From the NCBI GenBank assembly GCA_037445065.1, contig JBBILD010000023.1:1-59028 (forward strand): a DNA stretch of 59,028 nt. Reading direction: 5' to 3'. Below are positions 5,050-9,937 of the stretch, one piece after another. The notes below the pieces were generated by a model. The model worked only from the letters and a program-made list of their open reading frames with translations. It did no database searches and was not told the origin of the DNA. The translations under genes were made by a program, and so were the position numbers. Origin of the DNA: Myxococcales bacterium (GTDB taxonomy: Bacteria; Desulfobacterota; Binatia; HRBIN30). Numbering within the stretch: position 1 is the first letter of the stretch; each line of letters begins with the position of its first letter.

Positions 5050-5279
5050 GATTCCTCCTTATGCGATCTGGCCCGCGCCTGCCTGCACAACCGCAGACAC
5101 CGCGGTCCTAGCCAAACAAGCAAAGGTGAGGGCACGCTGCCAGCGGCCGGAGCAATGGACGGCCTGGAACGCAGAAAGTGCCGTGGCAGCAAGACTGTCG
5201 CGCGGTGGCAAGCCGATCCACTGGCTCTTGCGTGCATACGGCGCGCGATGATACGCGGCCCGCCGCGATATAAGGCAAA

Positions 5280-5567
5280 TTGACAGCCCGCTCCGCTCGT
5301 GCGGCCCTGGCGGTACTCACGGGCTTGCTCCTGCTGGCTGGGTTTGTCGCCCTCAAGCATCGCCACAGCAGCGGTGTGGTGGCCCATGCAGCAACCCAGT
5401 GCGCAGCCTGTACTCTAGCGAGCGGCGTGCGCACCGTGGTGCTGGAGGACGCGTGCGTCCTCCCGAATCCAGTTGCTGTAGTTGGCGCAGCGCCTTGCGA
5501 GGCACCGCCGCTGCTCGTTGTTCGCTTTAGCGCACCCGTCGCGGTGCGAGCTCCGCCCGTGGTCTAG
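5280..5567 (+). CDS. DUF2946/CutF/CruR-like leader (arrest) peptide
   Basis: Hydrophobic N-terminal segment, KHRH...H, CAAC, Pro-rich linker and C-terminal RAPPVV-stop. TTG start. Confidence 0.75.
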   Translation: MTARSARAALAVLTGLLLLAGFVALKHRHSSGVVAHAATQCAACTLASGVRTVVLEDACVLPNPVAVVGAAPCEAPPLLVVRFSAPVAVRAPPVV

Positions 5568-5742
5568 AGGCAGTTCCTTTGTCGCTTCCGCGAGCTGGGC
5601 CGCTCCCGGGCGGAGTGCACGGGAGTGGGCCCCGGCTGGTGGTTTGAGGAATCAGGTTGGAGCGGTCGCGTCAGAGCGCGTTACGACTCAGCCGCTCTGC
5701 CTATTTCGATACGGCACTTTGGAGTCTGTCACGGGTGGTCTA

Positions 5743-6326
5743 ATGCAAGGGCAGAACGAATTTGGGCAGAAGAGTTCCAAGCGACAGTGGAAGCCGTTGC
5801 GGCGAGTCGCTGTTTGGACGGTGGGGCTCGGGCTTGTAGTGGTTGCGTGCGGTCCGGAGAAGCCACCAGAATTCGATAAACTTTTTCGACATCGGGACAT
5901 TGTCGTGGCTGCGTCTCCTGCTGGACGCTTGATCGCAGTGTGGGAGGAAGCAGAGGCACGGAGCGCGACTTGCGAGCCAATTGGGCCTGCCGTCTACTGC
6001 TCCACGACGGATCCTGACTTCGCGGCGCTGGAGCAGGCCGCAGAGAACGCGTTGCCCCTGGATCCGCGGGTGTCGGTTATCGCGGAAATCGTGGCATTGA
6101 CGCCAGGTGCACGCCTGCGCCTCGAACAGACAGTCGCCGATGCCCCGGGGGCGAGAGTTTTGCTCGGCTCTGGCGACGAGATCCACGTACACGCGGCGTG
6201 GAGTACCTGAGTGCGGAACGGCTAAGCGAGATGCAAATTTCGTTTTGCTTGCTTGCCAACCCGCCCTTATACGAGCCGTCACCGACGTATACGGCGACCT
6301 TTCTGCTGGTCGGTGCTGAGGGTTGA
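5743..6326 (+). pseudogene. HxD...HxH lipoprotein, frameshifted at about 6200
   Basis: ATG at 5743 and lipobox VVAC-G. The ORF stops at IHVHAAWST (6210). Restoring one G at 6199-6201 continues WEYLSAERLSEMQISFCLLANPPLYEPSPTYTATFLLVGAEG to TGA 6324-6326, colinear with the 6802 paralog. Confidence 0.7.
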
Positions 6327-6334
6327 TCCTACTG

Positions 6335-6628
6335 ATGGGGTTCATCGAATCCTTTCGGGGGCGGGCCAGGCACTGGGTCTCTGCGCTCTTATTGGTCGTC
6401 CTCACCGCCGCTCTTGCAGCTGAGCGAGCGCACGCGGCGCGCTTCCTTGGACACCATGCTGTTACGTGCGCGGCGTGTGCTGCGGGGTCGCTGCCAGCGG
6501 TTTCGCCGCCTCCGGACCCCGCGCTCGCGCCGCCTGCGACTGGAGCGAGGTGTAATCGCGGGCCCACTTTGGCATGGTGCGCTGTCGCACCGAGGAGCTG
6601 CTCGGTGCCGCGTACGGGGACGCTGTAG
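6335..6628 (+). CDS. Second His/CAAC leader-like secreted peptide (no intact terminal RAPP)
   Basis: MGFIESF..., hydrophobic stretch, HAARFLGHHAVTCAAC and Pro-rich linker. Same layout as 5280-5567. Confidence 0.6.
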   Translation: MGFIESFRGRARHWVSALLLVVLTAALAAERAHAARFLGHHAVTCAACAAGSLPAVSPPPDPALAPPATGARCNRGPTLAWCAVAPRSCSVPRTGTL

Positions 6629-6725
6629 AGAAGCTGGAGGACTTCCAAGCGCGGCCGTCGCAGGGAGGAGATCCCCTACGGGAGTACTTCCCCTGCATGC
6701 GCTCGCGCCAGCACTGAAACTGAGA

Positions 6726-6758
6726 CGGGTCGGGGTGGCTTTCGGCCACCCCGACCCG
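6726..6758 (+). promoter_or_regulatory. Perfect 14-bp GC-rich hairpin in the spacer upstream of the 6802 gene
   Basis: CGGGTCGGGGTGGC-TTTCG-GCCACCCCGACCCG with no U-tract. A second hairpin (GAAATC/GATTTC core) follows, just before the AGGAG SD. Confidence 0.6.
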
Positions 6759-6801
6759 ATCCCCAGAAATCGCGGATTTCAGCGGGACAGGAGAAACCGT
6801 A

Positions 6802-7716
6802 ATGGCTCTTGTATTGGTGCTCGTTGTGTTGCTGGCGTTCCACCTTCCACGCCCGAGCGATGGTGAGACCCATGCTGACTTTGTCGTCGGCTCTGATCGA
6901 GAAGGCGGCGGGCGGCTTGTTGCCCTGGGCGCGGGAGAGACGAGAATCGGGCTGCGCCAGGTCGTTTGCGTGGCGGGGGGCTGTTTATGGGGAGCGAGCG
7001 ATCCCGGCTTTCTCGCCCTGCAGGAGGCACGCAGTGGCGCCTACCCGTTGCGTTCTGGTACCCGCGTGCGTTTCGAACTCACTTCGACCCAGCCTGAGGT
7101 AAGTATTCGAGTCGGTAGCACGATCCTGCGGGCTCCAGGTGAGACGGCCCTGTCGGGAACCGCTCCAGGTCTACACCTCCACCCGAGCTGGCAACTGACC
7201 TTGCCGGAGGGCACAGGCGGTACGTACGAAATCTCTCTCAGATTGATCCCGGAGGGAGGCGCTTATTCTCCTTCGTTGCCTTTGCTTCTCAGCTTGGTAG
7301 CCGAGGTCGCGCCTCCACCAAGTGCAACGGCGACGATGACTTCGACCCCCACCCCGACTTCCACGCTCACGCCTTCGCACACGGCTTCGCCATCCGCGAC
7401 CTCAGTACCAACGCTCACACCCACCCCAGCTGAGCCAACCGTCACGGCTTCGGCAACCTCCTCGCCGACCTCACCGCCCTCCCCCACGGCCACCGCGACT
7501 GCGACGTGGAGTCCGCCCACGCCCCCCGTTTGCCGAGGCGACTGCAACCAGAGCGTTGAGGTCACGGTGGACTAGCTGTTGCTGGCGGTCCGGATCGGCC
7601 TCAGCTTGGAGAGCGCCGCGGCGTGTGCTGCTGCCGATCGCGACCGCGACGGAGAAGTCACCATTGATGAGATCGTCGCCGCGGTCGGGGTTGCACTGAC
7701 TGGATGCAACTGGTGA
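6802..7716 (+). pseudogene. Secreted HxD...HxH domain + Pro/Thr linker + CxGDC dockerin-like domain; in-frame TAG at 7573-7575
   Basis: Reading through the TAG gives CRGDCNQSVEVTVD*LLLAVRIGLSLESAAACAAADRDRDGEVTIDEIVAAVGVALTGCNW-stop (7716). The second repeat has VTIDE at the equivalent position. Confidence 0.8.
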
Positions 7717-9169: not shown

Positions 9170-9937
9170 GTGAAGAACCTCTTCGATGTCTCAGGAAAGG
9201 TCGCTTTGGTCACCGGTGGCTCGCGCGGAATCGGGCTCATGATCGCGCGCGGTTTCGTGGAAAATGGTGCGCGGGTGTACATTTCTTCGCGTAAGAAGGA
9301 GGCGTGCGACCAAGTCGCGGCCGAGCTCTCGCGCCTGGGCACGTGCGTGTCGCTCCCGGCGGACCTTTCCACTGAGGCGGAATGCCGCCGCCTGGCAAGC
9401 GAGCTGGCGGCACGGGAGCCAGAACTGCATATCTTGGTGAACAATGCGGGAGCCAATTGGGGCGCGCCCCTACAAGAGTATCCGGACAGCGCGTGGGACA
9501 AGGTGTTGGCCTTGAATGTCAAAGCGGTGTTTCACCTCACCCGCGCGCTGCTGCCCCAACTGGAGGCGGCGGCGCGTGCGGGCGATCCGGCACGGGTCAT
9601 CAACATCGGCTCGATTGATGGCTTGCGCGTCCCCATGTTGGAGACCTACGCGTACTCGGCAAGCAAGGCCGCGGTGCACCACCTCACCCGCGTGCTGGCG
9701 GTGCAACTCGCTGCCCGCAACATCACCGTGAACGCGGTGGCTCCCGGCCCCTTCGAGAGCAAGATGATGGCTGCGACGCTCGAACGCTTTCGCGATGCGA
9801 TCGTGGCTGCCTGCCCCCTCGGCCGCATTGGCGAACCCGAGGACATGGCCGGCGTCGCCCTGTACTTGGCCTCTCGTGCGGCCGCGTACGTGACCGGCGC
9901 AGTGATCCCGGTTGACGGCGGATTGAGCCTACGCTGA
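9170..9937 (+). CDS. Short-chain dehydrogenase/reductase (RhlG-like)
   Basis: Motifs [17 protein letters not shown] and PVDGG. GGAGG RBS before GTG 9170. Confidence 0.92.

Follow-up and report, generated by a model that had tools for sequence, protein, structure and literature searches.

What does the apparently repeated arrangement at positions 5280-7716 of contig JBBILD010000023.1 represent? The window analyzed here is this whole stretch of 59,028 nucleotides, which is contig C23 of the source genome G000 (a member of the Binatia; 3.79 Mb, 97.7% complete). An earlier note, made from the window sequence alone, described the region as a tandem of two units, each with a short leader peptide, a hairpin-rich spacer and an exported histidine-motif protein (hereafter the cargo). 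Based on comparison with related genomes, the two-unit layout does not hold: the real order is the five-part leader 1 - A - leader 2 - B - C, which is seen intact in G024 and G002. The window locus is, we judge with reasonable confidence, a decaying copy of such a metal-capture operon. From its sequence features, the system appears to belong with CruR and CutF; its cargo family is unnamed, its start-site switch is probably independent of Rho, and it is possibly specific for zinc.

The domain of the second cargo protein was used as query against 41 related genomes and was matched in 23 of them, G000 counted; flanks were fetched for 40 cargo loci from 24 genomes. A, B and C share one beta-sandwich domain of about 150 residues and differ in their anchors, which are lipid in A, a Cys-rich tail in B and a dockerin-like tail in C. 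Variants of the operon order occur in G004, G020, G017, G030 and G182, and second leaders with a RAPP end are present in G024, G002, G004 and G182. The G020 copy decayed separately, with both leaders damaged, a stop in B and frameshifts in C.

Three lesions are present in the window copy: a frameshift in A, a deletion of ~1.0-1.2 kb and a TAG codon in C (all features lie on the forward strand). Cargo A (5743-6326) was correctly described as lipid-anchored, with the lipobox Cys at 5851-5853, HxD at 5890-5898 and HxH at 6184-6192. It is not one open reading frame, as had been assumed. Three-frame translation places a frameshift at ~6199-6204 and a TGA stop at 6208-6210, with the last 40 codons in the next frame; the ISFCL/YEPS part is thus encoded in a different frame from the N-terminal part. 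Read through with X, window A is 36% identical over 177 columns to the intact G024 gene, and in a tree of 69 domains it sits on a long branch (1.58, versus a median of 0.59).

Only the 5' part of leader 2 remains (6335-6520), encoding a hydrophobic segment, His-His and CAAC (6467-6478). Its open reading frame continues to 6628, out of frame across a remnant of cargo B (6523-6717). The remnant comprises the last 64 codons, contains its own TAA (6553-6555) and is 55% identical to an intact relative (tblastn E=3e-17); sequencing run X2 has a further stop variant at 6646. The distance from the leader 2 CxxC to a motif in the B tail is 98 nt in the window versus 1171, 1125, 1181 and 1305 nt in four relatives, and we therefore place a deletion of ~1.0-1.2 kb upstream of the B remnant, with its junction at ~6515-6535. 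The deletion removed the RAPP end of leader 2 and most of cargo B. Because of it, the leader that had been drawn at 6335-6628 is chimeric: its CAAC stands, and it has no C-terminal RAPP. It aligns weakly to leader 1 (BLASTP E=0.045; 2 of 2000 shuffles score equally high), and the fragment matches the leader profile described below at E=0.03. Two imperfect 21-nt direct repeats (76%) at 6494-6538 lie at the estimated junction, a possible microhomology.

The deletion also means that half of the second spacer is coding remnant of B. The two spacers do measure 175 nt (5568-5742, which contains the ribosome-binding region 5729-5738) and 173 nt, but the near-equal lengths are a coincidence, the second being B remnant plus the B-C intergenic hairpin. 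Hairpin richness was seen in spacer 2 (folding z=-5.75), which is explained by the B remnant and a perfect 14-bp hairpin (6726-6758) that belongs to the B-C intergenic region and not to a leader spacer. A strong hairpin of different sequence occupies the same position in G024, G020 and G002, that is, in 4 of 4 loci folded including the window. Spacer 1 folds only slightly more stably than its shuffles do (z=-2.1, 7 of 200 shuffles).

Cargo C consists of a signal peptide and a His-motif beta-sandwich domain (6802-7311; HxD 6871-6879, HxH 7174-7182, Trp 7189-7191), in which the Cys pair is also present, followed by a Pro/Thr/Ser linker and a CxGDC dockerin-like domain (7312-7716). Its linker and tail were correctly recognized, whereas the uninterrupted frame from 6802 to 7716 was not found, as TAG (7573-7575) lies inside the dockerin-like domain. 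Cargo C is 41% identical over 312 columns to the intact G024 gene. The dockerin-like tail has EF-hand matches alone, all under the Pfam cut-off. G000 holds 48 copies of this domain (E<=1e-4) on many exported carriers, MbnP and MbnH included, which suggests an uncharacterised surface-display tag; a stop inside the domain occurs in one of the 48, cargo C of the window. The alignment by eye of the two cargo domains was borne out (BLASTP E=1e-11, 31% over 108 residues; Smith-Waterman score 134 versus a maximum of 52 in 2000 shuffles). From the window operon, leader 1 and the domain of C alone could still be produced whole.

Leader 1 (5280-5567) is intact and was read correctly as a frame of 95 residues. 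It has a hydrophobic run at residues 9-25, as read from the sequence, His27-x-His29 and His36, CAAC at residues 41-44 (5400-5411) and RAPP at residues 90-93 (5547-5558), followed by two residues, so that it ends RAPPVV. CxxC and RAPP are separated by 45 residues. The assignment of such leaders to the DUF2946 type is supported by this CruR-like anatomy; family membership is not supported at the profile cut-off. With PF11162, leader 1 scores 10.9 bits against a cut-off of 23.7 (E=0.79), leaders of 8 relatives score 16.7-19.7 bits in four cases and have no match in the other four, and no match above the cut-off was found in the 5 genomes scanned.

The spacing between the motifs is nearly fixed. 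Thirteen leaders were chosen, without a spacing filter, for a RAPP-type end and a CxxC somewhere in their final 130 residues; the CxxC-to-Arg distance is 43-45 residues in all 13 (two further pattern matches without a hydrophobic segment, at L047 and L051, were dropped by eye before the count). The same 43-45 holds for 32 of 32 distinct complete leaders, of which 18 came from the profile or from spacing-limited patterns and are not independent of spacing. Both CxxC cysteines are invariant in 14 aligned leaders, and a profile of these 14 has matches, weak ones among them, in 29 of the 41 genomes (E<=0.05). A His pair lies N-terminal to the CxxC in 28 of the 32.

Based on inspection by eye, the partners of the 32 leaders are a porin-like gene in 15 cases, cargo operons in 10, a TonB receptor in 4 and others in 3. 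ATP-binding cassette (ABC) transporter genes lie behind the porin-like gene in the four loci read far enough, one of them intact in G000. A divergent leader is found at the head of the porin-like gene in G002 and G030, together with an ABC system that matches AztC/A/B best, though below cut-off. The G000 case (L086:5200-10009, contig C12) is this genome's other intact leader of the CxxC-45-RAPP type and precedes a porin-like gene with a ZnuA/ABC-3 metal importer.

A promoter pattern, TTGAC followed after 16-18 nt by TA, lies 4-12 nt before an in-frame start in 17 of the 32 leaders versus 6 of 6400 shuffles; the pattern was devised once the sequences had been seen. In these 17 (L090-L122, L052, L089) the mRNA would begin at or near the leader start codon, as in leaderless-type mRNAs. 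Leader 1 of the window fails the pattern, having no TTGAC box at the matching distance; a possible -10 hexamer lies six bases 5' of its start (5268-5273). A standard scan of the window found no sigma-70 promoter, and its terminator-like matches were at chance level.

The cargo domain represents a genuine family of beta-sandwich proteins that has no name as yet and in which a metal site is probable. The full search returned 293 representatives at 50% identity (E<=0.001). In an alignment of 131 of the 150 listed members (the query and 130 others; those left out were mostly long), the first His of HxH is kept in 129, the second in 125 and the following Trp in 119, and the Cys pair in 63 and 53. 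Grouping in the tree of 69 domains largely follows anchor type, and many lipoproteins of the MbnPH-linked type carry HxD instead of HxH. The predicted model of the domain is an all-beta sandwich (predicted local distance difference test score, pLDDT, 95.9). No solved structure was found by sequence. The closest solved fold is the pilin CfaB (Z 8.3, root-mean-square deviation 3.6, 123 aligned), one of several generic beta-sandwich matches that neither name nor exclude a family. Predicted-structure neighbours of one member are unnamed PEP-CTERM clusters from Planctomycetota (TM 0.84) and Cyanobacteriota (TM 0.75, 314 residues); the PEP motif itself occurs in 2 of 150 family matches. The top cluster of a feature-based comparison is automatically named MbnP-type protein (0.89-0.91), which we take as a lead only.

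No part of the locus obtained a Pfam or NCBIfam name. Dockerin_1 (PF00404) matches 7 of the 131 members (best E=3.4e-8). In a phylum sample of 301 genomes, four were matched; because the alignment used included the dockerin-like tail, only G000 and G182, which belong to one class, are counted as holding the cargo domain. Word-index protein searches were nearly blind to the family (window protein alone, six proteins, and query alone), and a search of named genomes with P0044 gave one short match, probably unrelated. In P0016, a protein of 3239 residues, the stretch of the cargo domain from residue 45 to 103 is matched 29 times over short lengths, which marks either a repeat protein or an artefact.

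The earlier note had proposed a choice-of-anchor M-like cargo. Choice-of-anchor M (NF038134) and the actinobacterial surface proteins of TIGR03769/TIGR03773 have the HxD...HxHxxW motif order in common with the cargo. The assignment itself is not supported at the profile cut-offs: across 5 genomes, NF038134 and TIGR03769 gave weak matches only, and none of these lies at a cargo locus. TIGR03773 has weak matches in 3 of the 131 members (best E=2.9e-5, below cut-off).

How often do leader and cargo go together? We scanned 120 hand-chosen neighbouring genes, most of them from 228 called near cargo loci, and two from contig C10 of G000. A leader stands directly before a cargo gene in 8 of the 40 loci, three of which are damaged (window, G020, G017); in a ninth, the leader is followed by a ZnuD-like TonB receptor and then by A. 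MbnP is found above cut-off in 17 of the 40, adjoining or fused to the cargo; cargo-MbnP fusions occur in four loci and cargo-MbnH fusions in three, and leader and MbnP occur together in one locus only (L034). Thus, the pairing of CruR-spaced leaders with putative surface metal-binding cargo proteins holds for intact relatives, where leader-peptide control is predicted, and it does not extend to most cargo loci, which are leaderless. Leaders can be missed in this count, since several loci are short contigs. Overall, the neighbours are dominated by metal transport genes and MbnPH. Five loci (L034, L037, L043, L047, L064) are flanked by RegBA-like regulators (an ActS/RegB and ActR/RegA-like pair), and in three of these five a thioredoxin of the TlpA-like type is present too, along with an unnamed protein whose N-terminus bears a CDxC motif; this may represent a second, leader-free regulatory context.

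Possible links between the leader and the downstream start were explored by RNA folding. In the window, the Pro-Pro-Val-Val codons at the end of leader 1 (5553-5562) form an anti-Shine-Dalgarno stretch complementary to the 10 bases before the ATG at 5743 (z about -3). The duplex of 5553-5562 with 5729-5738 scores -19.2 and -20.5 kcal/mol (values reached by 6 and 12 shuffles in 1000, respectively), and its helix probability is only ~0.3 in the free fold. The predicted cost of opening the start of A falls from 12.2 to 3.3 kcal/mol under the footprint of a stalled ribosome, and to 3.6 with a ribosome at the stop codon. A second duplex (5574-5587 with 5779-5792) would hide the TTG at 5797, a possible alternative start. 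An anti-Shine-Dalgarno sequence just 3' of the leader stop does not hold up across the family (own z -0.31 versus -0.61 swapped), for which reason TTG 5797 was dropped as the preferred start of A and is kept as a less favoured candidate. Comparison of spacer 1 with four related spacers also led us to reject a conserved RNA fold between leader and A (consensus -3.6 kcal/mol, covariation term unfavourable).

Across the family, 27 leader-partner pairs were compared after dropping five of the 32 (three without a clear partner start and two near-duplicates); the window was entered with TTG 5797, and related leaders are not independent. Leader ends pair better with their own partner's start than with swapped ones (-17.2 versus -15.6 +/- 0.5 kcal/mol; 31 of 20000 permutations). 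When an 18-nt window was moved through 23 offsets with the window copy excluded (n=26), the signal peaked at the Arg codon of RAPP (z -1.32 +/- 0.31, swapped -0.46).

Several observations count against a switch of this kind. The cognate pairing is modest, and no cognate pair is best in its own row. An alternative position 80 nt upstream scored -16.7, close to -17.2. Pro codons pair with any GGAGG, and start sites were partly picked by Shine-Dalgarno strength. The start region is opened by a terminating ribosome in 16 of 27 pairs and by a stalled one in 14 of 27; as the terminating ribosome opens it as often, folding alone cannot fix the sign of the switch. We conclude that an anti-Shine-Dalgarno sequence inside the arrest codons is supported by folding, and that stalling and termination are not separable that way. 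A stalled ribosome is favoured over a terminating one by a SecM-like argument, because only the stalled one stays long enough; this mode of action has been demonstrated for SecM and suggested for CutF (PMC9973294; bioRxiv 10.1101/2025.02.05.636593).

Based on these observations we propose the following mechanism. Translation of the leader would begin, in many relatives, almost at the 5' end of the mRNA, and the leader's N-terminus would be exported. When metal is scarce, the ribosome would stall at RAPP or RGPP (for CruR this arrest is established, the P and A sites being occupied by the two Pro codons; PMC12992588), cover the anti-Shine-Dalgarno codons and free the cargo start, so that the surface proteins are made. 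Metal would bind the His pair and CxxC, which at a distance of 43-45 residues would be just outside the exit tunnel. Folding or export of the metal-bound leader would then pull the chain free, the helix would re-form and the cargo would be shut off. No Rho would be required for the switch, and the second leader would gate B and C again. The cargo domain is predicted to bind metal through its N-terminal His/Asp and HxH (or HxD) and to pass it to uptake systems. The sign, with scarcity as the on state, is taken from CruR and from the uptake-type partners. A Rho-independent start-site switch is, in our assessment, probable.

This scheme resembles CruR (Bp2923 of Bordetella pertussis; PMC9426467, PMC12992588) in the export signal, the CxxC, the C-terminal RAPP and the 45-residue spacing, which in the CruR family is kept within one or two residues (PMC9426467). 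Shared too are the first position in the operon, a long spacer (162 nt in CruR, 175 in the window) and uptake-type genes downstream. The window-type leaders differ in falling below the Pfam cut-off, in an extra conserved His pair, in their downstream genes (an unnamed surface family, a porin with a ZnuA-type ABC system, or TonB receptors) and in the second leader within the operon. CruR also needs Rho, whereas rho was not found in the G000 lineage. With CutF of Rhodobacter capsulatus (PMC9973294, bioRxiv 10.1101/2025.02.05.636593) and SecM the proposed switch shares a stalled ribosome that would unmask the next ribosome-binding site without Rho. CutF in turn has CxxxC and a polyproline end, stalls with copper present and switches on a detoxifying oxidase; we predict the opposite sign here, because the genes behind CxxC/RAPP leaders look like uptake genes.

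Upstream reading frames ending in RAPP or RGPP are widespread before metal genes (PMC12992588), CutF-like leaders have been proposed to include Ni/Co sensors (bioRxiv 10.1101/2025.02.05.636593), and in Caulobacter a DUF2946 gene precedes a zinc-efflux operon of the resistance-nodulation-division type (PMC4176598; bioRxiv 10.1101/072470). We met neither this cargo family nor stacked leaders in the literature found, and no ZnuA-type operon headed by such a leader, but the neighbour tables of PMC9973294 and PMC12992588 may hold cases.

On the cargo side, a close parallel in form is ZepA/All3515 of Anabaena (PMC10957091, NF040463), likewise exported and surface-anchored, with a His cluster and a His/acidic N-terminus; the cargo may also share its Ig-like beta-sandwich fold. 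The All3515 profile matches 6 of the 131 members at E<=0.01 (best E=1.4e-5, to its C-terminal half). All scores lie far below the 75-bit cut-off of NF040463, with no match for the window cargos, 23.5 bits for P0083 and 14 bits for cargo A of G024. The H-X2-9-H-F/Y-H motif of ZepA (PMC10957091) is unmatched; the cargo family has the consensus LHxHPxW and lacks a further conserved His close by. Further differences are the second domain of ZepA, which is unmatched, its PEP-CTERM anchor in place of lipid or dockerin-like anchors, and its control by Zur. The copper pair MbnP/MbnH (TIGR04052, TIGR04039) often adjoins the cargo domain or is fused to it; it is not in the window locus, and MbnP loci are mostly without leaders.

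Rho was found in 33 of the 41 genomes. It was not found in G000, in all five genomes of the sister genus g9 (G008, G018, G020, G022, G024; 95-99% complete), in G026 (95-99% complete) or in G012 (83% complete), which points to a probable lineage-wide loss in G000 and g9, and also in G026. The Bordetella route is therefore unavailable in the G000 lineage, and G000 retains the intact leader before the porin-like gene and ZnuA/ABC-3 operon. Each of 5 genomes scanned has two Fur-family genes (L126, L128, L123-L132), with best matches to Fur and PerR. None of them is Zur-like, the Zur match being weakest or absent, and such best matches do not prove specificity. A DtxR-type domain was found, marginally, in one of the five.

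Pointers to zinc are the ABC operons with best NCBIfam matches to AztC/A/B, the ZnuD-like receptor, the combination of His and Cys ligands in the leaders, the missing Zur-like protein in the 5 genomes scanned, and the ZepA-like traits of the cargo with its weak All3515 matches. We regard zinc as the sensed metal with about even confidence, copper as somewhat less likely and any other metal as distinctly unlikely. It is conceivable, though less likely than not, that bacteria of this class answer zinc starvation with no Zur and, in one lineage, no Rho either. They would rely on His/Cys sensors in nascent chains, one ahead of every block of uptake genes and sometimes two in a single operon, with a RAPP stall unmasking the next start; the cargo would be a new surface zinc-capture family distantly akin to ZepA. 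Against the main reading stand the leaderless state of most cargo loci, the 17 of 40 that are associated with MbnP instead, and the occurrence of cargo types B and C both with leaders and in the MbnP context. The N-terminal His and Asp of the putative metal site are kept in only 88 and 80 of the 131 aligned members. The AztC, ZnuD and All3515 matches are all below cut-off, and the 3His+Asp set of the binding protein does not separate Zn from Mn or Fe.

An alternative with the same anatomy is a copper system, in which the leaders are divergent CruR orthologues that sense Cu through CxxC and the cargos are surface copper chaperones working with MbnP/MbnH. The abundance of MbnP at cargo loci, the fusions to both partners, the exact CruR spacing and the MbnPH-like genes reported among CruR-family neighbours (PMC9426467) all favour it, as does the fact that both tested prototypes, CruR and CutF, sense copper. 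We nevertheless consider it somewhat unlikely: leader and MbnP meet in L034 alone, and the commonest leader partner is the porin-like gene, followed in the loci read far enough by a ZnuA-type ABC system. Such ABC systems are not known to import copper. The leaders might instead be blind to metal and monitor export or envelope state, in the manner of SecM or by disulfide formation at CxxC, with a structural or adhesive cargo in which the His motif is incidental. RAPP/RGPP upstream reading frames do also precede sec and thioredoxin genes (PMC12992588), the nearest solved folds are pilins and adhesin domains, and TlpA-like genes and RegBA-like regulators lie near several cargo loci. A Z near 8, however, reflects a common arrangement and says nothing of function. 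The HxH is nearly invariant, with a His-to-Asp exchange in one lipoprotein subgroup, the leader His pair is conserved and the neighbours are mostly metal transport and MbnPH genes, which makes metal-blind monitoring improbable.

Two further alternatives concern the state of the locus. If the leaders were Rho-dependent as in Bordetella, loss of Rho could have made them useless and led to decay of the operon. Among the six Rho-less genomes of G000 and g9, the operon is decayed in G000 and G020, intact in G024 and not found in three. We give this explanation little credence: intact leaders remain in Rho-less G000, before an intact-looking ABC operon, and in G018, before a porin-like gene; G024 retains both leaders; the complementarity of RAPP codons and Shine-Dalgarno sequence is kept in the window; and leader loci are damaged also in the Rho-bearing G004, G017 and G030. 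Alternatively, the lesions could be assembly errors or be bypassed by recoding (frameshifting and TAG read-through), leaving a functional two-unit tandem. We compared four of six listed sequencing runs (X1, X2, X5, X6) as assembled contigs, not reads. X5 and X6, from two other studies and at depths below 4, carry one extra base after 6199 that puts A in frame in these related strains, and the third cargo paralogue, on contig C10, is frameshifted too. The deletion junction is spanned by X1 alone, possibly the source of this assembly, and X5 and X6 do not cover the deletion or the TAG. Nonetheless, the frameshifted A allele and the TAG are carried by X2 as well as X1 (the two are from the same study), X2 having them independently, and recoding cannot explain a B remnant with its own stop. 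TAG recoding in cargo C was rejected, as 47 of 48 dockerin-like domains are stop-free. An intact two-unit tandem is thus scarcely credible, and we retain the reading of a decaying five-part operon.

In the literature found, nascent-peptide metal sensing is shown only for copper (CruR, CutF), and these two pass the signal on to the next gene by different routes. The leaders described here form a natural test set: the distance from CxxC to RAPP is fixed, a His pair has been added, the partners are of zinc type, leaders are stacked within an operon and some of the genomes are Rho-less, so that a transcriptional route can be distinguished from a translational one. The leader on contig C12 of G000, intact and in a Rho-less genome, is the best bench candidate in this organism. 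The cargo adds an unannotated family with at least 293 representatives at 50% identity and a probable metal site. The window copy is of lesser weight, being a remnant and a warning that broken operons can mimic neat tandem designs.

The window had no Rfam match, and no plasmid match was found. Unusual arrangements of the same elements were seen elsewhere. In G182 (L052:7080-13437), five consecutive cargo genes, accompanied by two leaders, are followed by a di-haem peroxidase-like gene. In G004 (L034:5531-6559), tandem leaders are separated by 386 nt that are gene-free, and gene A has apparently been lost. The third cargo paralogue of G000 (L001:7505-9530, contig C10, minus strand) combines the domain with a dockerin-like and a cytochrome-c-like tail; it is frameshifted near 9320-9343 and runs in frame into MbnP, while MbnH lies on another contig.

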